Part shown: positions 3,412 through 59,069 of the stretch, piece by piece
How positions within the stretch are numbered: position 1 is the stretch's first letter
Layout of the letters: every line of letters starts with the position of its first letter
Virus record (IMG/VR): IMGVR_UViG_3300033153_007277
Location: 6,208 to 70,207 of that record
Reading direction: 5' to 3' (one strand)
Origin: a virus
Length of the DNA stretch: 64,000 nucleotides
Notes under the pieces: generated by a model
Database searches by the model: none
What the model saw: the letters and a program-made list of their open reading frames with translations, nothing else
Told to the model about the DNA's origin: nothing
Position numbers and translations under genes: made by a program

Positions 3412-3618
3412 ATGTTCTGTCCTAAATGCAAAAATAGAGAATCGAAAAAGCAGATTGAAGGCTTTGAAGAATTGAAAGCGATTCAGAAAAAGAGGTATGG
3501 CAAAATACCTTGTAATAATTGTCTAATCGAATTGATAGGAGGATATAACGAATATGAGAAACAAAAAATAAACCAAATACTCAAAGAAATGGGTATTGAA
3601 AAACCTTCGAACAAATGA
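3412..3618 (+). CDS. small zinc-finger protein
   Basis: CPKC and CNNC pairs. Confidence 0.6.
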   Translation: MFCPKCKNRESKKQIEGFEELKAIQKKRYGKIPCNNCLIELIGGYNEYEKQKINQILKEMGIEKPSNK

Positions 3619-3658
3619 AAGCTTTTAAAAAGGCAGATGAACTAATAAATAATAAGTA

Positions 3659-4183
3659 ATGGGAAAGCAAACAGAATTAGTAGTGTGTAAGTCATGCGAA
3701 GAAACAGATATAATAGCCGAAGGTTCTTCATGCAAAAATTGCGGAGAAGTCTACAAGAAAGAGAAAATCAAGAAACCTTCTGCCATGGAAATCTATGTTC
3801 ATGAAGTATCAGAAGCTAGAGATAAGTACATCAAGGCGATGAGGAAAGAGAAGCTTTCTAAGGAAGAGAAATTGGAGATGTATAAGGAAGAGGACAAGGG
3901 TGTTATTTCTTTCAAGGAGGAGTTGCTGGAGTCGGATGAAATGAAATCTTACTTTGACAAGATTCAGGGTGCTAGGGAGAAGTTTATGGAAGATAAATTG
4001 AAGGAGCATTTGAGTGAGGGGGATCGGGCTAAGTTTGAAACTTATAAGGAGTTGGCAGATTATTTCGCTGGTGAGGGGGTTGTGAAGACTTTGTACCAGG
4101 GATCAGGGTACTCAGATTCAAAGTATGGCATAATGATTAATGGGAAAGAGTATTGGCTTAAGGAAAGTGATATTGAAATATAG
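3659..4183 (+). CDS. hypothetical protein with N-terminal zinc ribbon
   Basis: CKSC...CKNC. Confidence 0.7.
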   Translation: MGKQTELVVCKSCEETDIIAEGSSCKNCGEVYKKEKIKKPSAMEIYVHEVSEARDKYIKAMRKEKLSKEEKLEMYKEEDKGVISFKEELLESDEMKSYFDKIQGAREKFMEDKLKEHLSEGDRAKFETYKELADYFAGEGVVKTLYQGSGYSDSKYGIMINGKEYWLKESDIEI

Positions 4184-4186
4184 TTG

Positions 4187-4265
4187 TATATTTGATATGG
4201 AGTTCAGACTTAGCGGTTTGACGCAAGAGGTTCACGTTCCTGCTCCATATCTCTAACAACGTGAA
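4187..4265 (+). ncRNA. Promoter plus structured leader RNA (three-way junction with pseudoknot), copy A, upstream of HNH gene
   Basis: TATATTTG 4187-4194; P1 4194-4203/4242-4251; P2 4204-4209/4216-4221; P3 AGG/CCT; loop TTCACGTT complementary to AACGTGAA 4258-4265. Confidence 0.65.
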
Positions 4266-4280
4266 TAAAAACGTATTAAA

Positions 4281-4820
4281 ATGGAAAAAGAAAGGTGGTT
4301 ACCCATTGAAAATTATGAAGATTACTACGAAGTATCTAATTACGGAAACGTTAGATCGCTAGAAAGGACCTACGTAAATGTTAATATACGAGGTAAAAGA
4401 GGAAAGATTCTAAAAGGAGGAAAAGATACTAAAGGGTACATGTTTTTTTCATTTAGCGTAGAAAGTGTCAAAAAAAAGATGTGGGCGCACAGACTTGTGT
4501 ACCAGGCTTTCGTAGGAGAGCTAATAGAAGGTATGGTAATAAACCATATAGATCATGATGAATTAAACAATTATTACAAAAACTTAGAGCAAATAACTAA
4601 AAGAGCTAATAGTTCTCATGGAAATAAAACTAAAAAAACTTCCAGTGAGTATACAGGAGTATACCTACATAAAGCCTCAAGAAAATGGATGTCTAGAATA
4701 AATATAAATAACAAGACGATATATCTAGGGCATTTTAAAGTAGAAGAAGATGCGGCTAGAGCTTATGACGCTGCATTAATAAAATACGGATTAGAAAACA
4801 AATACAAAAACTTTAACTAA
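4281..4820 (+). CDS. NUMOD4-HNH homing endonuclease with C-terminal AP2 domain
   Basis: ERWLPIENYEDYYEVSNYGNVRS (NUMOD4); HRLVY...VINHIDHD..NN..NLE (HNH); SEYTGV...YLGHF..EEDAARAYD (AP2). Confidence 0.9.
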   Translation: MEKERWLPIENYEDYYEVSNYGNVRSLERTYVNVNIRGKRGKILKGGKDTKGYMFFSFSVESVKKKMWAHRLVYQAFVGELIEGMVINHIDHDELNNYYKNLEQITKRANSSHGNKTKKTSSEYTGVYLHKASRKWMSRININNKTIYLGHFKVEEDAARAYDAALIKYGLENKYKNFN

Positions 4821-5275
4821 TGGAAGAAGATAAATCTATAATAGATACTCATTTTACAGGTACGTCTGGAATACAGTTTGGTAATCCGATGAGTTCATGT
4901 TTCTTAGAGGTTAGTTCGATTTACGACAATGAAGAGATGTACGAAGAGTTGAACCCGAACCGCACTAAAGCGATAATCCTATGGATACTCGTGTATTCAT
5001 TGATAGTGATAGAAGTGTTAGTTTCATTGGCTATTGGGGCATTGCTATATTACTGGATCCAAACTCCCCTTCAGGGTATCGCTTCTGCATTCCTATCTAT
5101 TCAAATGATCAGGATATTCCCATTAATAACTGTAGATTTCTTCGAAGAAAAAATACCTTCTACATCGAAAATGCTTACTAAATGGAGAAAAGTGACAAAA
5201 GTAGATGGATTTATTCCGCTGAAACATTCAATTAAAGATAACTACAAAAAAGAAGGAAATGGCTATAAAAAATAA
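4820..5275 (+). CDS. hypothetical membrane protein
   Basis: Two hydrophobic segments. Confidence 0.65.
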   Translation: MEEDKSIIDTHFTGTSGIQFGNPMSSCFLEVSSIYDNEEMYEELNPNRTKAIILWILVYSLIVIEVLVSLAIGALLYYWIQTPLQGIASAFLSIQMIRIFPLITVDFFEEKIPSTSKMLTKWRKVTKVDGFIPLKHSIKDNYKKEGNGYKK

Positions 5276-5477
5276 ACACTACGCAATCCGAATGGCTGAT
5301 GAGATTCAATCCCTTCGTGAAAAATTAAGAATACTGGTCACTGATCCAAAATCCACGGCAGCTACACTTATAAAATTGGAAGTTAAGACAGAGGCTGATG
5401 CTGAGGATGCTGCATGGTTTGGAGATACATCTAAAAAAGGAAACGGACTTATCGATCAAATAGAAACCGATGAGTAG
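5259..5477 (+). CDS. hypothetical protein
   Basis: Overlapping-operon ATG ORF. Confidence 0.6.
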   Translation: MAIKNKHYAIRMADEIQSLREKLRILVTDPKSTAATLIKLEVKTEADAEDAAWFGDTSKKGNGLIDQIETDE

Positions 5478-5910
5478 GGCTTCAGAGAAATATTCGGAAA
5501 TGATGAATCAAATCCTTGGCAAGAAGGATGAGATTGTTAATGGAAAGTATCCAATTAGATTAAGCACATGGCATCTTAGGGATAAACCTAAAAAAGCCGT
5601 AAATTTAGATGCTGTAGACGATTTGTTTTCTGATGATTTAACGCTGAAGAAGTTGAGAGATCCCAGAAGAAAGAAGGAAAAGGAATATATTGCCAAAAAT
5701 ATTGTTGTGTCTGGAACTTCGAAAGAAATATGGAGGATGACCACAAGCGACAATTACTTGTTTCAAGTATTCTCCGATGTGTTTGGTAAAAGTAAAGCTG
5801 CCAAGAAAATTAAGGAGGGAAAGATTGAGGTTGTGAGAGTGGAACTTGATAGTGAAATATTGGGATGGGGTGTTGGTCAGCTGTCTCCAGAATTGTTGTT
5901 CGATTATTAA
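5470..5910 (+). CDS. hypothetical protein
   Basis: Overlapping-operon ATG ORF. Confidence 0.65.
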   Translation: MSRASEKYSEMMNQILGKKDEIVNGKYPIRLSTWHLRDKPKKAVNLDAVDDLFSDDLTLKKLRDPRRKKEKEYIAKNIVVSGTSKEIWRMTTSDNYLFQVFSDVFGKSKAAKKIKEGKIEVVRVELDSEILGWGVGQLSPELLFDY

Positions 5911-5922
5911 TTAAAAAACATT

Positions 5923-6231
5923 ATGAAAAAAATTATCGATAAAATATTTAATAAACTAGGGTACATTCCTAAGCCAAAAGAAATTCCTGTAAATGCTTGT
6001 TACGGACAAGAGAGGTTGGTTTTAATTAAAATAGAGAAGAGGATCAGCAAGAAAGAGATATTGGAAATGAACGGAAACATCTCTATGGCAATGTATAGTC
6101 TTAAGAGAGAAATGAGGGAAGAACTTTTTATTGAATTAGAAAAATTCACAGAAATAAGACATGTAGCTATGCATGATTATAATCAGCTTGAATTAATATT
6201 AAGAGTTGTTGACCTTGGGAAAGAAAAATAA
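5923..6231 (+). CDS. hypothetical protein
   Basis: ATG ORF with A-rich leader. Confidence 0.6.
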   Translation: MKKIIDKIFNKLGYIPKPKEIPVNACYGQERLVLIKIEKRISKKEILEMNGNISMAMYSLKREMREELFIELEKFTEIRHVAMHDYNQLELILRVVDLGKEK

Positions 6232-6616
6232 ATATAATGCTAAGAAAGTTGTTTGGGACGGTAAGACGTTCGACTCCACCAGAGAATGTTATGCCTATAA
6301 ATTATTCACCAATTTAAAAATTCCCTTTAAATGGCAGGTAAGATATGAGCTTGTTCCAAAGTTCGAGTTCAACGGAATCAAGATTCAGGCATTGACTATG
6401 ATTATCGACTATATAGTTGACACCCCCACTCATAAGATAGCTGTCGATGTCAAAGGTCATGTCACAGAAGTTGCCAAAATAAAATATAAGATGTTGAAGT
6501 TTCAGCAGCAGGAGATGGTATTTAGAGATTACGAAGAAGTAGTGTGGTTACATAGCGAATCTGAGATAAATGGATTTGCATTTAAAATTAGAGATCAATG
6601 GCGAAATTCGAATTAA
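6206..6616 (+). CDS. DUF1064-family PD-(D/E)XK endonuclease
   Basis: NKYNAKKV..DG.TFDS..E...Y and ID...DVKG motifs; exact start uncertain. Confidence 0.8.
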   Translation: MLTLGKKNKYNAKKVVWDGKTFDSTRECYAYKLFTNLKIPFKWQVRYELVPKFEFNGIKIQALTMIIDYIVDTPTHKIAVDVKGHVTEVAKIKYKMLKFQQQEMVFRDYEEVVWLHSESEINGFAFKIRDQWRNSN

Positions 6617-6870
6617 GTTTAGGTAAACCCGGGCTAATAAAAATATTTCCCAACTTCAATCGAAGCGGAGATCAACCGGAATATAGAGGCATCATGACTG
6701 ATGATATTGGTGATGAGTATATTGTGTCGCTGTGGGCGAAGAAGGGTGCCAAGGGAGGAAAATATTTGACGGGGAGAGTTACTAGGAAGAGTGATTTGGA
6801 GAGTGTGATTAAGAAGCAGGATGTTGAGAGAGATGACAAAGTGGATGATGATGTTGATTTATTTGATTAA
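6598..6870 (+). CDS. DUF736-like OB-fold ssDNA-binding protein
   Basis: QPEYRG...VSLW.K....GKYL motif and acidic tail DDDVDLFD. Confidence 0.6.
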   Translation: MAKFELSLGKPGLIKIFPNFNRSGDQPEYRGIMTDDIGDEYIVSLWAKKGAKGGKYLTGRVTRKSDLESVIKKQDVERDDKVDDDVDLFD

Positions 6871-6886
6871 ACTATAAATTTTAGAT

Positions 6887-7294
6887 ATGAATAAGGAGGA
6901 AATAAGAAAAATACTACTCAAAGAACTAACGTCTAATTATGATGAAGGAAATATTGAAGATGGAGGCATAGGAGGCGGTGACGAATGTATTGATAAGATA
7001 TTTAGCTTAATGGGCCAACAATCCAAAGCTAAAGATGAGGAGATAGAGGAAGCTAAAGCAAAAGCATTTAGAGCAGGAAGCGCAATGTTTGATTTAAAGA
7101 AAGAGATAGCCGAACTGAAAGAAGGAATAAAAAAAGTTGCTGTCAGGTTTTCAAGAGGTAGGGACATTCACGCAAATAGGATGCAAGAAAAAGATGTTTC
7201 ACCTATTAAAAAAAATAGAGCATCATACTTAATGAATCATTGCGAAACTATTGTGTTGTCATTAGAGCTACTACTAAACCAAAACAGAGATTAA
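6887..7294 (+). CDS. hypothetical protein sharing a domain with 61226..61522
   Basis: SPIKKNRASYLMNHC segment. Confidence 0.65.
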   Translation: MNKEEIRKILLKELTSNYDEGNIEDGGIGGGDECIDKIFSLMGQQSKAKDEEIEEAKAKAFRAGSAMFDLKKEIAELKEGIKKVAVRFSRGRDIHANRMQEKDVSPIKKNRASYLMNHCETIVLSLELLLNQNRD

Positions 7295-7302
7295 AAAAAA
7301 GC

Positions 7303-7575
7303 ATGAGGTACTATATTTACGTTTATTGGCAGCAAGGAAATGTTGGTGCTAAACAAGTTGACACACTAGAAGAACAGCCAAAAGAAGGATTTGCAACCGA
7401 AAGTAAAGCAGAAGAATATTTGCTTGATTTAATTGAAAAGAGAAAAGGATACTATTTTGACAGGGATTGGTATAAGTTTACTATTCTAAAAACGTGGAAC
7501 TCTAAAAGTGCGTTGGATAAACAACAATTAAACAATAACAGCCTTAATAAAGAAAAAGCTGTAAAACTTAAATAG
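7303..7575 (+). CDS. hypothetical protein
   Basis: ATG at 7303 (MRYYIYV) preferred over the upstream TTG. Confidence 0.55.
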   Translation: MRYYIYVYWQQGNVGAKQVDTLEEQPKEGFATESKAEEYLLDLIEKRKGYYFDRDWYKFTILKTWNSKSALDKQQLNNNSLNKEKAVKLK

Positions 7576-7578
7576 AAG

Positions 7579-7785
7579 ATGATGGAAATAGCATTAGTAT
7601 CTGCATTAATACAATATGAGGACTTACCTGTAAGTAGAAGGCAGCTCACCAAACAAATAAGAGAGTTTAATAATTTTGAGATGAGTATGACCTCTCGAAA
7701 GAAGTTACTACTAAATGATTTAAATGAGTTAAAGAGATTTGCTTTGTTTGTTAAATCCAATCCTAAACCACCTAAGAAACAATAA
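7579..7785 (+). CDS. hypothetical protein
   Basis: ATG ORF in operon. Confidence 0.5.
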   Translation: MMEIALVSALIQYEDLPVSRRQLTKQIREFNNFEMSMTSRKKLLLNDLNELKRFALFVKSNPKPPKKQ

Positions 7786-7887
7786 CTAAAAAGAGAAACT
7801 ATGATGTATATCACTCGACATGGAAAGCTAGTGTACTTCATAGGGCAGTCTGCAATAGAGATTATTGGGTTTAATAAAAACTTTTTA

Positions 7888-7986
7888 TACATTTGCATTC
7901 GTAGCTCGGGCTTATAATCCGATGCAAAAGGTTTCATCAACTTACCTGCTACGATTCTTTTAAATAGTTGGTGTAAATAAAGTTGA
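7888..7986 (+). ncRNA. Promoter plus structured leader RNA, copy B, upstream of HNH gene
   Basis: TACATTTG 7888-7895; P1 7899-7905/7948-7954; P2 7906-7910/7918-7922; P3 AGGT/ACCT; loop complementary to 7966-7973 and 7980-7986. Confidence 0.65.
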
Positions 7987-7990
7987 AATT

Positions 7991-8521
7991 ATGGAAGAAG
8001 AAATTTGGTTGCCAGTTGTGGGTTATGAAGGCTATTACGAAATTAGCAATGAAGGTAAGGTTAAAAACCTAGAAAGAAAAGTTAAAAGTAGATATGGGCT
8101 TAGATCGGTGCGAGAAAGAATTTTAAAAATAGATTTAGGCTCAAGAGGATACATGATGGCTGATTTAAGTGTTAATTGCATAAAAATTAAATATAGTGTA
8201 CATAGATTAGTAGCGATAGCTTTTTTAAAAAACAGCAATAATAAAGAGCAGGTTAACCATATAAACGGAATTAAAACAGATAATCGTGTTGAAAACTTAG
8301 AATGGTGTACTCAGTCTGAAAACATGAAACACGCTTTTGAAAATAATTTATATAAAATTGGAGAATCACACCACCAGTCTAAATTAACTGAATTAGAAGT
8401 TGTAAAAATAAAAGAATTAATATCAAAAAAAATACCGTATAGAGCTATAGGTAAAAAGTTCAATGTAACAGCTTCGACTATATACGATATAAATAAAGGT
8501 AAAAATTGGAAACATATATAA
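7991..8521 (+). CDS. NUMOD4-HNH homing endonuclease with C-terminal HTH
   Basis: EIWLPVVGYEGYYEISNEG (NUMOD4); VHRLVAIAF...VNHINGIKTDNRVENLEW (HNH); SKLTE..V...IGKKFNV (HTH). Confidence 0.92.
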   Translation: MEEEIWLPVVGYEGYYEISNEGKVKNLERKVKSRYGLRSVRERILKIDLGSRGYMMADLSVNCIKIKYSVHRLVAIAFLKNSNNKEQVNHINGIKTDNRVENLEWCTQSENMKHAFENNLYKIGESHHQSKLTELEVVKIKELISKKIPYRAIGKKFNVTASTIYDINKGKNWKHI

Positions 8522-8543
8522 ATAAAATCAAAAAATAAATAAA

Positions 8544-8891
8544 ATGGAACTAAAACTAAAAGGAAAAGTAAAAGAGATAATGGCTGTAGAAAATTTTGAC
8601 AGTGGTTTTTCTAAAAGGCAGTTTGTGATAACTACAGATGATACCTACCCTCAAGATGTAGTATTTGAGTTGATAAAAGATAAGTGCGATTTGATAGATC
8701 CGTATGCCATAGGAAGTGATGTTGAAGTGTCATTTAATGTTCGAGGAAATTTTTACAATGGTAAATATTACACAAATATTCAGGCGTGGAAACTTGCGGG
8801 AACTGCTGCAGCGCCAGCCAAAAAAGCTCCCCCTACTCCTGCAGCTGCTCCATTCGAAGTAGATGAAAGTGATGACAATACTCCATTTTGA
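8544..8891 (+). CDS. DUF3127-family ssDNA-binding protein (Bacteroidota type)
   Basis: F.KR.FVI.T...YPQ.V.F...V.F..RG..YNGKYY..I.AW and acidic tail ending DDNTPF. Confidence 0.88.
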   Translation: MELKLKGKVKEIMAVENFDSGFSKRQFVITTDDTYPQDVVFELIKDKCDLIDPYAIGSDVEVSFNVRGNFYNGKYYTNIQAWKLAGTAAAPAKKAPPTPAAAPFEVDESDDNTPF

Positions 8892-12792: not shown

Positions 12793-13169
12793 TATCTTTC
12801 GTCTACAATAGCTTCAGAAGCAGCTCTGTCAGCAGCATCAAATATTTGTTTCTTAAGAATCCTTCCTGTATCTAAATGTCTTTTTAAAGTATCTTTACCT
12901 GCTGTCCAAAAAGCAACTACATTAGCTTCAGCTAAACTGTATTCGTTATTGTCTAATGTACTTATGTCTAACGGGAAAGTAAATGCAGATTGGTTAGTAT
13001 GTATCTCAGTCCAATTTATCTGAGCATATACAGATAAAGAAAATGTATTAGATTCATAAGGAAAACCTGCTGAAATTAATATAGCAGTTCTTGTGTCTAT
13101 TTCATTGTACCTGTATGCCTTGTATTCGTCAAGAGTATAGCCAGAAGTATCTATTCTTTGTTTTAGCAT
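12792..13169 (-). CDS. DUF4376-like tail-associated protein
   Basis: GF.Y....F, T.DN....L, LK.QI..A pattern; follows the tail spike. Confidence 0.6.
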   Translation of the reverse strand: MLKQRIDTSGYTLDEYKAYRYNEIDTRTAILISAGFPYESNTFSLSVYAQINWTEIHTNQSAFTFPLDISTLDNNEYSLAEANVVAFWTAGKDTLKRHLDTGRILKKQIFDAADRAASEAIVDER

Positions 13170-51541: not shown

Positions 51542-51625
51542 AATTTCCCAGTCTTTCCTGAGTGTCATATCTGCCCTGAAAGGTGTTTCGGATTAATCCA
51601 ACTCCCTATGCCTACTCATGTAGCT

Positions 51626-51910
51626 CGATAAGCGACCCGACTCTTACGGGTTATCGTTTAATGAGTGGGGGATTATCGTTTCCCCCAGTACGTTCTACGC
51701 TGCAACTCTAAGCTGCGGTGTAAAAAGGTTTATAACTTTTGCAGTTATATTTATCAATCTAAAGTTCATTACCCTTATCTCGCTGTCAAATCCAGGTCAC
51801 CCCCATATATCCACCAGAGGTTTGATAGTTCCTAACTCTGGCCCATTGGAAAATGGTAGTGGAGGTGGGGGAAATCGAATCCCCGTCCAAACAAGTAGCT
51901 AATAACAAAT
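51626..51910 (-). ncRNA. ssrA: circularly permuted (two-piece) tmRNA
   Basis: Acceptor piece ~51910-51860 (TGGAC, T arm GGGGA-TTCGATT-TCCCC, CACCTCC-A) precedes the coding piece starting GGGGGTG-ACCTGGATTTGAC at 51804; G3-U70; tag frame 51742-51695 AKVINLFTPQLRVAA*; outer ends approximate. Confidence 0.88.
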
Positions 51911-51998
51911 TGTGCCATGCACTAGATTAATGTTTTTAAATGTAAATAAAATTAGATCAACTTACATGCTATCGTGGCAAGGCTAATTGTATTTACCA

Positions 51999-52211: not shown

Positions 52212-52367
52212 CAGTGCAAACAGGATTTGAACCTATGGACCCTTTCGGTAGTTGCTTCCCTACTCCGGGTCAGTAGTTGTTATCCTTGAGCAACAAATAA
52301 AGAAGTTTACTCTTTATCAATCATTTGGATTAGACCACCGCTTTCAACCATACTTAGCTATTGCACT
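52212..52367 (-). ncRNA. tRNA-like RNA (Ser-like scaffold) with a 56-nt structured insert in place of the anticodon loop
   Basis: AGTGCAA/TTGCACT-G acceptor; D arm GCT/AGC with GG; stem GTGGT/ACTAC; long variable arm GACCC/GGGTC; T arm ATAGG-TTCAAAT-CCTGT. Confidence 0.7.
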
Positions 52368-54584: not shown

Positions 54585-55418
54585 ATGAAAAAGGTATTTA
54601 CAAGCTCATACGATGTGATACATCTATTTGCACAAAGAAGTCAAGACGAAGCAAGAGTTTCAAACAGAAGCGTATATTTTAACAACGAAACAAAGATTTA
54701 TTCTTATGGTTCGCATTATTTGTTAGGTGAGTTTTTAGATGCCAACACAATAATGATAAATGATGACGGATATAGCGTTACAACATCAAAACATATCAGC
54801 CAAATAAAAGGAGCAACAAGCCAGTATAGACAGTTCTTAAAATCAGAGTCGGACATCGACAGAGTACATAGTCACGTAATAGCTAACAAAAACAGGTTAG
54901 CAAATGCAAGAAAGCCCGAAATGTACATAAACCCCATTTTAAATCTATGGTCCACGCTTAACACTTTCCTTGAATACAGCAAAGCAAAGAAGTACAAAAG
55001 CAATAAAAAATATCGAGAGATTAAATCTATTGTGAATGCCCTCAATAATGGTTCCGATGACTTCAAAGAGAAATTGAGACTTGCAGCCATAAAAGAAGCG
55101 AAAGCTCAAAAGAGAAAAGACGCGAAAGAACTAGTAGAAAAACTAGAGAAATTCAACAACTATGAAATCAATTTCTTTAGAGTTGGAAAGGAGGACTACC
55201 TGAGACTATCACAGGATGGTGAAAGAGTGGAAACTTCCCAACATGTAAGCGTTAAGCGAGAGAATGCAAAACTATTGTATCAAATGATCGAAAGAGGTAT
55301 TGAAATAAAAGGCAAGCATATCGAAAACTATGTAGTTACCAGTATAAACGGTACATTGAAAATTGGATGCCATAGTATAAATATTGAGAGCATGCATAAA
55401 ATAGGCAAATCTCTGTAG
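54585..55418 (+). CDS. conserved early phage protein of unknown function
   Basis: IYSYG.HY, YSVTTSKH and IGCH motifs. Confidence 0.75.
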   Translation: MKKVFTSSYDVIHLFAQRSQDEARVSNRSVYFNNETKIYSYGSHYLLGEFLDANTIMINDDGYSVTTSKHISQIKGATSQYRQFLKSESDIDRVHSHVIANKNRLANARKPEMYINPILNLWSTLNTFLEYSKAKKYKSNKKYREIKSIVNALNNGSDDFKEKLRLAAIKEAKAQKRKDAKELVEKLEKFNNYEINFFRVGKEDYLRLSQDGERVETSQHVSVKRENAKLLYQMIERGIEIKGKHIENYVVTSINGTLKIGCHSINIESMHKIGKSL

Positions 55419-55499
55419 TCGACTAAGCGACTCTAAACCACATTAAGCTTAGTGCGTCCCTCATTGCGAGGGGGTTGTATAAACTAAAACACATATAAA

Positions 55500-58880: not shown

Positions 58881-59069
58881 GATGGAATGGCGGAATTGGA
58901 AGACGCTGATTCTAATAAGAGTAGATTGCAAATTGTTCTTCGGCATTTGGCAACAAGTGTGACATATACGGAAGAACCTCAGACGGGTCCATGCTTGAGT
59001 CCTGTCGCTTACAGAAAGGTGTGCATTAGATAACTTACTCATTTGCAGGTTCGAATCCTGCTTCCATCA
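58881..59069 (+). ncRNA. tRNA-like RNA (Leu-like scaffold) with a 138-nt structured domain replacing the anticodon and variable arms
   Basis: GATGGAA/TTCCATC-A acceptor; TGGCGGAATTGGAAGACGC D arm; GCAGG-TTCGAAT-CCTGC T arm. Confidence 0.75.

Follow-up and report, generated by a model that had tools for sequence, protein, structure and literature searches.

The window analysed here is a stretch of 64,000 nucleotides (nt) of phage DNA, bases 6208-70207 of the 70,207-base-pair (bp) IMG/VR record IMGVR_UViG_3300033153_007277, which has direct terminal repeats and belongs to a marine-type phage. It holds exactly two NUMOD4 genes, both coding for HNH endonucleases, and upstream of each there follow, in order, a Bacteroidota-type box, an element of about 55 nt and an A-rich leader of 30-36 nt. 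The original prediction, made from the letters of the DNA, was that the two elements, here called e1 and e2, are the same covarying, pseudoknotted RNA with a structure under selection. Here we show that the e1/e2 RNA is a real and widespread phage leader, absent as such from Rfam 15, in which one loop is complementary to two sites between the fold and the start codon. Comparison of the sequences leads us to favour, with moderate confidence, the reading that both elements represent one conserved 5′ leader RNA, acting in cis, that would exert two-state control over translation initiation.

Anatomy of the two copies

Every component described for both copies, namely the box, helices P1, P2 and P3, the junction strand J2/3, the P3 loop (L3) and sites 1 and 2, is present (Table 1). 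The P1/P2/P3 junction is the minimum-free-energy fold of each 58-nt element taken alone (e1, -19.3 kcal/mol, z -3.05; e2, -15.0 kcal/mol, z -2.64). L3 has an 8-nt complement (site 1) 9-11 nt after P1 and a shorter one (site 2) 4-6 nt before the ATG, the latter confirming the second partial copy of the pairing partner that had been noticed just before each start codon. The statement that the two copies share almost no sequence identity was too strong: 32 of the 57 aligned columns are identical, so the junction core (in order AGY, UC.G..C.GA, YGCAAR, AGGUU..CCU and GCU) is conserved and only the stems and the loop/site pair differ.

Table 1. Coordinates in the window of e1, e2 and the genes that they precede; R1 and R2 are the covariance models described in the next section
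Feature	Position	Strand	Basis or remark
e1 promoter -7 box TATATTTG, Bacteroidota type	4187..4194	+	read from sequence; putative promoter
e1 three-way-junction RNA	4194..4251	+	fold; R1 65.7 bits, R2 64.1 bits; family covariation
e1 P1 GATATGGAGT/GCTCCATATC	4194-4203 / 4242-4251	+	7-bp core 4197-4203 / 4242-4248
e1 P2	4204-4209 / 4216-4221	+	loop TTAGCG
e1 J2/3 CGCAAG	4222-4227	+	
e1 P3 AGG/CCT	4228-4230 / 4239-4241	+	
e1 loop L3 TTCACGTT	4231-4238	+	
e1 site 1 AACGTGAA, 'decoy' position	4258..4265	+	full L3 complement; 8 pairs, no G-U; begins 9 nt after P1
e1 site 2 AACGT	4270..4274	+	complements 3′ part of L3; -11..-7 from ATG at 4281
NUMOD4-HNH_3-AP2 endonuclease gene 1, 179 amino acids	4281..4820	+	Pfam
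e2 promoter -7 box TACATTTG	7888..7895	+	
e2 three-way-junction RNA	7899..7954	+	fold; R1 75.1 bits, R2 68.6 bits
e2 P1	7899-7905 / 7948-7954	+	
e2 P2	7906-7910 / 7918-7922	+	
e2 J2/3 TGCAAA	7923-7928	+	
e2 P3 AGGT/ACCT	7929-7932 / 7944-7947	+	
e2 loop L3	7933-7943	+	
e2 site 1 AGTTGGTG	7966..7973	+	pairs with CATCAACT, 7935-7942; 8 pairs, one G-U
e2 site 2 AAGTTGA	7980..7986	+	pairs with TCAACTT, 7937-7943; 7 pairs; ends 4 nt before ATG at 7991
NUMOD4-HNH_3-HTH endonuclease gene 2, 176 amino acids	7991..8521	+	Pfam

The stop codon of gene 1 overlaps the ATG of the next open reading frame (ORF) at 4820.

A family of phage leaders

Two covariance models were used, R1 built from e1 and e2 alone and R2 from nine sequences. 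Searched against its own phage, R1 returns e1 and e2 only. A pattern drawn from the conserved J2/3-P3 core (pattern 1) matched 24 loci in IMG/VR, eight of which carry full-length R1 matches of 46.7-59 bits with differing stems, one of the eight having a second copy. R2 gives these full-length copies 50.5-70.6 bits and the remaining pattern-1 matches at most 23.5 bits. A second pattern, based on the L2 loop, matched 47 loci, of which 44 were new and 39 of those reach at least 30 bits. With one match truncated at the edge of its contig and another scoring 20.4 bits left out, 51 matches in IMG/VR phage contigs were kept, and these reduce to 44 distinct leaders. That a model of two sequences recovers full-length copies with different stems from other phages is more than chance would give.

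A blastn search against cultured phages added Polaribacter phage P12002L/S, where the element (13100-13151) has a classic hairpin-U8 terminator on one side and an annotated HNH homing endonuclease gene on the other; in P12002L one copy only is found by R2, before that gene. The terminator-form hairpin with its eight T (L224:2925-2968, about 13044-13087 of the record) stands just upstream of the leader's promoter box, so the HNH cassette in this phage looks like an insulated transcription unit. The available text of PMC9892861 describes two attC sites predicted in P12002L near methyltransferase genes, and these may overlap the leader element.

At least 80 bacterial loci also match pattern 1, and the 80 listed, which served as a control, score at most 24.2 bits. 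Searches of four whole Bacteroidota genomes, of which three are labelled Flavobacteriaceae or Flavobacterium and the fourth Chryseobacterium, gave no copy of the RNA. A single 28.7-bit match in 151 genomes of the Flavobacterium resistens family has neither promoter box nor sites and was taken for chance. Close phage relatives sought through the neighbouring genes gave none, or one distant locus. For relatives of the two HNH proteins, 30 loci were searched with R1 and R2 and none has the RNA, and the leader is thus no general companion of NUMOD4-HNH genes.

Covariance-model search found the RNA absent from Rfam. There was no match at e1 or e2 at gathering thresholds, nor at E ≤ 10 on 5 kb or on about 120 nt around each copy, and six other members gave none at E ≤ 5; among these eight sequences no known ribozyme or riboswitch class of Rfam 15 matches. 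Weak matches to sR7, Ocean-VII, U6atac, MIR5185, RSV_RNA, sR5, trpB and Thr_leader lie elsewhere or far below threshold. A transfer RNA (tRNA)-like reading was set aside, ARAGORN finding no tRNA at the elements, and L3, at 8-13 nt, is not a T loop. Inspection by eye gave no grounds for keeping four further ideas, namely that J2/3 pairs with the linker, that it pairs with L2, that there is a leader peptide, or that the element is an attC-like site: either nothing covaries or most members lack the signal. Literature searches found no description of the e1/e2 leader RNA. A catalogue of 8,495 unnamed candidate RNAs from IMG/VR (PMC10690425) does not mention HNH or Flavobacteria in the available main text, and the e1/e2 RNA may be among the unnamed candidates in its supplements.

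Covariation and strand

The 44 leaders were aligned independently with MAFFT from P1 to the ATG. In this alignment 95.0% of cells are paired, whereas sliding the partners gives 31-48%, and 18 of the 21 pairs have changed on both sides, a number reached by none of 500 shuffles; all five pseudoknot pairs that could be placed in register covary. The model-fitted alignment of nine copies has 91.5% of cells paired and nine of 17 pairs changed on both sides. RNAalifold, run on the 44-leader alignment, finds P1 and P2 de novo. Across the family J2/3 reads UGCAAA or UUCAAYG, and there are no unpaired J1/2 or J3/1 bases. Covariation thus extends to P1, P2 and the pseudoknot, and to P3 in the members described below, which upholds the view that one RNA with a selected structure stands before both HNH genes.

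The closing pair of P1, U7-G53, is a wobble in 40 of 42 rows, and since it is valid on the sense strand only it argues for an RNA rather than for a DNA element or an antisense transcript. This bears on the idea that the three copies of the 8-mer, one inverted and two direct, serve at the level of DNA as an operator, iteron or recombination site. As DNA the motif does form an inverted repeat and a direct repeat around an A/T-rich spacer, and some copies precede replication-initiator genes. However, the covariation of P1 and P2 includes G-U wobbles, which are valid pairs on one strand only, and the 8-mer varies freely (26 variants) beside differing partner proteins, for which no single DNA-binding protein accounts. 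We regard a DNA-level role as very improbable.

One loop, two sites and a fixed distance to the start codon

An alignment-free count gives 26 different L3 loops among the 44 leaders, and the statistics that follow use one leader per distinct loop (n = 26). At site 1 a loop forms a best run of 8.0 pairs on average with its own leader and of 3.7 with the leaders of other loops, and only 1.1% of these non-cognate combinations reach 7. In the segment from site 1 to the ATG, which contains site 2, at least five pairs are formed in 22 of the 26 cognate combinations, compared with 12.5% of non-cognate ones. The co-variation of the loop with both sites is accompanied by a fixed geometry: the linker measures 9-13 nt, the ATG follows P1 by 30-38 nt, and between the end of site 2 and the ATG there are 1-8 nt (median 5). 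The common form is ...AACGTGAATAAAAACGTAAAATTATG, with site 1 at -23..-16, an A-run at -14..-10 and site 2 at -11..-7. Mean duplex energies are -8.8 kcal/mol for site 1 and -3.7 kcal/mol for site 2. Elsewhere in the window no longer complement of either L3 stands out from chance.

The position of site 2 is what makes translational control the best reading. In Flavobacterium johnsoniae, according to the available part of PMC6847099, A residues at -14..-11 (chiefly -12 and -13), -6 and -3 together with low structure promote initiation, with no Shine-Dalgarno pairing. Site 2 overlaps the 3′ end of this initiation-promoting A-run and so lies where the ribosome must bind.

Putative promoter, U-rich tract and the fate of the transcript

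P1 is preceded, at a distance of 1-5 nt, by a TAnnTT[T/A]N box in 42 of the 44 distinct leaders, and the remaining two carry TATATTGT. Bacteroides promoter studies place the start of transcription about 4 nt after this box. We infer that the box serves as the promoter and that the transcript begins at, or close to, the first base of P1.

With such a start the 7-bp P1 would be flush with the 5′ end, an arrangement that invites explanations in terms of RNA fate: a stabilising cap against 5′-end-dependent RNases, a tRNA-like processing signal for RNase P, an exonuclease-blocking knot or a self-cleaving ribozyme. The topology resembles that of exonuclease-resistant viral RNAs, in which a junction likewise has a P3 loop pairing 3′ of P1, and ribozymes do occur in this phage, which has a pistol elsewhere in the window. 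On the other hand no ribozyme or tRNA model matches the elements, and site 2 and the fixed distance to the ATG would be left unexplained, which makes this family of explanations quite improbable.

The eight nucleotides after P1 contain seven U in 13 leaders, six in 11, five in 12, four in 4 and three in 4, e1 being among those with three. A U-rich tract at this place raises another alternative, that the element is a C4/CI-like antisense RNA. Most transcripts would then stop at the tract, releasing a free RNA of about 60 nt without the decoy, whose L3 would pair in trans with both sites of mRNAs that read through the tract, shutting translation off as the RNA accumulates, giving a delayed negative feedback that is possibly cassette-specific. 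The C4 RNAs of P1/P7 and the CI RNA of P4 act in this manner: they are small antisense RNAs from the leader of the operon that they control, with a loop complementary to downstream targets at ribosome-binding sites. The e1/e2 leaders share with them a structured leader RNA, a loop complementary to downstream sites near the initiation region and a loop/target pair that varies among relatives. Further in favour are the tract itself, with at least five U in 36 of the 44 leaders directly after P1, the presence of two target sites for one loop, the loop/site pair being the most variable part of the RNA, and a second class of leader, described below, that ends in a hairpin and TTTTTATTTT just before the ATG. 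The loop/site pair also differs between copies in all four two-copy genomes, but loop frequencies lead us to estimate that this would occur by chance about half the time. Against it, eight of the 44 members, e1 included, have only three or four U in the tract, and a simple terminator scan of 3600-8800 calls none, although such a scan is blind to branched stems. The narrow spacing of P1 and site 1 and the constant distance to the ATG fit a fold in cis, and the site 2 duplex alone would be weak in trans. The Rfam C4 model (RF01695) gave no match at E ≤ 10, in a search that met no C4 copy anywhere and so had no positive control. Taken together we consider an antisense role unlikely, and control in cis remains the reading that we prefer.

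In e1, ATCTCTAAC stands where most members have the U-rich tract. P1 of this copy can be extended from 7 to 10 bp through 4194-4196 / 4249-4251, three bases overlapping the promoter box, and the extension would form only on read-through transcripts.

Downstream genes and behaviour as a cassette

Downstream genes were tallied for the 43 leaders with a readable ORF. NUMOD4 proteins account for 30 of them (29 with HNH_3, 13 with AP2), and the other 13 comprise about nine replication-initiator or primosomal proteins and four other DNA enzymes. Ten of these 13 products were scanned: four are DUF6291 or primosomal-type, three are replication-initiator, DnaD-like or primosomal, and one each is a T5orf172 homing-endonuclease-like protein, a Dam methyltransferase and a small endonuclease-VII-like zinc-ribbon protein. 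The three unscanned products were assigned by N-terminal likeness, those of L060 and L089 to L074 and that of L073 to L051b. The proposed association with HNH genes therefore stands as the majority case within the family, whereas exclusivity does not, given these 13 genes. The leader outconserves the protein that it precedes, with 100% against 61% identity; among 276 pairs, leaders at least 90% identical accompany proteins 35-66% identical.

Eleven loci that have in common an upstream gene of 204 amino acids allow the cassette to be followed at one insertion site. Seven are empty, a spacer of 14-18 nt separating this gene from one for a small membrane protein. In another, promoter, RNA and HNH gene are inserted exactly between the stop codon and the small membrane-protein gene. 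Two carry an HNH gene behind a different leader, likewise covarying and pseudoknotted, and the last has a different neighbour. The suggestion of a mobile promoter-RNA-nuclease unit is thus upheld, subject to the qualification that replication genes too are found behind this leader.

The second class of leader precedes NUMOD4-HNH genes at this same insertion site (L235:3113-3216 and L238:3104-3219) and is a covarying pseudoknot with a terminator-like end. The helix after its promoter box is GTCGCTG..CAGCGAC in L235 and GTCGCAG..CTGCGAC in L238. Interleaved with this helix is an 8-bp hairpin, GCCTACCA..TGGTAGGC in L235 and CCCTACTA..TAGTGGGG in L238, which is followed directly by TTTTTATTTT and the ATG.

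Comparison with known systems

The closest counterpart is the int-alpA RNA motif (RF02996, typed 'Gene; sRNA' in Rfam), which reportedly originated in the 224-motif survey of Weinberg et al. 2017 and is merely listed in the literature that we found on it. Both families form a three-way junction in which P1 encloses the P2 and P3 hairpins; J2/3 is A-rich, and the linker that follows P1 is rich in pyrimidines. The P3 loop of each has two complements, one 7-9 nt downstream of P1 and the other 3-6 nt upstream of the ATG, which itself lies about 30 nt from P1, and both families occur in mobile-element contexts. Read by eye, all six enterobacterial int-alpA copies have the two-site design, site 2 there being the Shine-Dalgarno sequence.

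The differences are equally distinct. The int-alpA RNA has unpaired UA in J1/2, unpaired CU in J3/1 and GAAAA in J2/3, and its P3 is a G+C-rich helix of 5 bp, whereas the e1/e2 family has no J1/2 or J3/1 bases and a P3 of 3 bp (AGG/CCU), and the core sequences differ. L3 of the e1/e2 family contains no anti-Shine-Dalgarno sequence and is thus free to vary, and site 2 is not a Shine-Dalgarno sequence. A Bacteroidota-type promoter stands upstream, and HNH or replication genes follow instead of alpA.

At the sequence level the two do not find each other. RF02996 (gathering score 35.8 bits) has no match at E ≤ 10 in 3600-8600, 4170-4290, 7875-8000 or the whole genome of this phage, and none in 34 further phage records (E ≤ 1) or 48 more (E ≤ 0.1); about half of these 82 records carry the e1/e2-type RNA. 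R2 finds nothing at int-alpA sites, even with filters off. The RF02996 search itself works, as 17 of 151 Enterobacteriaceae genomes match, 16 of them above the cut-off; E. coli CFT073 and one Salmonella genome gave nothing. The e1/e2 family is best filed as an undetected branch of the int-alpA design in phages of hosts without Shine-Dalgarno sites; that such hosts ignore Shine-Dalgarno sequences would explain the freedom of its loop. The two families may be homologous or convergent. In one enterobacterial contig an RNAI match (ColE1-type antisense RNA, L247:1867-1969, minus strand, 70.2 bits) lies 300 nt from the int-alpA copy, which therefore sits on a plasmid-like element.

Homing endonuclease genes of T-even phages (I-TevI/II/III, segB, mobE) are regulated by RNA structures that occlude the ribosome-binding site, as the available part of PMC2988022 describes. 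The likeness lies in a leader RNA structure that limits translation of a homing endonuclease, which for the e1/e2 family is a proposal, and in a cassette with its own promoter. However, the T-even structures described there are simple hairpins that bury the Shine-Dalgarno sequence and are relieved by a late promoter firing inside the hairpin, whereas the e1/e2-family box lies 1-5 nt upstream of the whole fold, which combines a junction with a pseudoknot, offers two alternative sites and involves no Shine-Dalgarno sequence.

HEARO/omega RNA, the partner of IscB, is likewise an RNA associated with an HNH-domain nuclease, but its model (RF02033) has no match at e1 or e2. The e1/e2 RNA is, as anticipated, much smaller, at about 55 nt against several hundred; it accompanies NUMOD4-HNH homing enzymes rather than IscB and also precedes non-nuclease genes.

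A proposed two-state leader

We propose the following course of events. A host-type promoter would fire and the transcript would begin at or within a base or two of P1. Its first 55 nt or so would fold into the three-way junction with its nearly invariant core, exposing L3. The loop could then pair either with the strong upstream decoy, site 1 (8-9 pairs, about -23..-16), or with the weaker site 2 (5-6 pairs, about -11..-7), where Shine-Dalgarno-less Flavobacteriia ribosomes would contact the mRNA. The initiation region would be open or closed according to which of the two sites L3 occupies, and the leader would in this way set or switch the translation of genes harmful in excess, such as free-standing homing endonucleases and replication initiators. 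The sequences themselves show the structure, covariation in every helix and at both sites, the geometry, the gene association and the cassette behaviour; the effect on translation, the default state and the trigger that shifts the balance we infer. As to the default state, the energies would favour the decoy and leave the gene on.

Several observations weigh against this model. With site 1 forming by far the stronger duplex, L3 should at equilibrium rest on the decoy and the initiation region should be open, and a repressive role then needs strain, kinetics or a further factor. RNAalifold does not predict the 3-bp P3 on the 44-leader alignment, and P3 is AGG/CCU almost everywhere, covarying in two members only (GUG/CAC and GAG/CUC). 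The U-rich tract would suit termination with release of a small RNA no less than it suits a linker. Finally, some 20 nucleotides of the junction and L2 are strongly conserved, more than simple occlusion requires.

The last of these points suggests a partner or ligand, and leads to a further alternative in which the invariant core has a ligand, either a small molecule or a protein of phage or host, whose binding shifts L3 between decoy and initiation region, as in a riboswitch or a protein-operated translational operator. About 20 nearly invariant unpaired or junction nucleotides and the conserved L2 loop UUAGCG do stand beside freely varying stems, a two-state design requires a trigger, and the downstream genes have a common theme in DNA cutting and the start of replication. 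Yet the known riboswitch classes give no match, the data point to neither a ligand nor a partner protein, and the downstream proteins are too diverse for autoregulation by the gene product, so that such a sensor, taken by itself, appears rather improbable. A broader version of the two-state leader can also be imagined, if only as a speculation that we think unlikely to hold: the core would sense a metabolite, phage protein or host factor and flip the loop between decoy and initiation region, and each cassette would in addition possess a private loop/site address, by which free RNA copies would silence cassettes of their own kind and no others.

Few selfish genes of phages are as common as homing endonuclease cassettes, and except in T-even phages little is known of what keeps their expression at a tolerable level. 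The family described here offers unusually clean natural evidence of one loop kept complementary to two leader sites at once, in phages of non-Shine-Dalgarno hosts, and indicates that the two-site design is not bound to anti-Shine-Dalgarno mimicry. The orphan Rfam motif int-alpA gains a concrete, testable two-state model, and a cultured carrier, Polaribacter phage P12002L, makes that model directly testable. As a small portable promoter-leader unit with a programmable loop, the element could serve expression tuning in Bacteroidota. Were the reading with sensor and private address true, it would amount to an RNA-only programmable switch-and-immunity module, of a design common to phages of Shine-Dalgarno hosts (int-alpA) and of others (the e1/e2 family).

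Other structured RNAs in the window

The pistol self-cleaving ribozyme (RF02679) lies at 55417-55479 on the plus strand, scores 58 bits against a gathering score of 34.5, and is the only ribozyme match of the window. Two matches to the Rfam tRNA model, at 52212-52367 (minus strand, 156 nt, 35.1 bits) and 58881-59069 (plus strand, 189 nt, 29.4 bits), look like tRNA-like scaffolds with large inserts, ARAGORN calling zero tRNAs in the window. A permuted transfer-messenger RNA (tmRNA; RF04321, 71.7 bits, 51695-51907) was found by Rfam within 51604-51949 on the minus strand. ARAGORN also calls a permuted tmRNA in the window, with the tag peptide AKVINLFTPQLRVAA*; a phage-encoded two-piece tmRNA is unusual.

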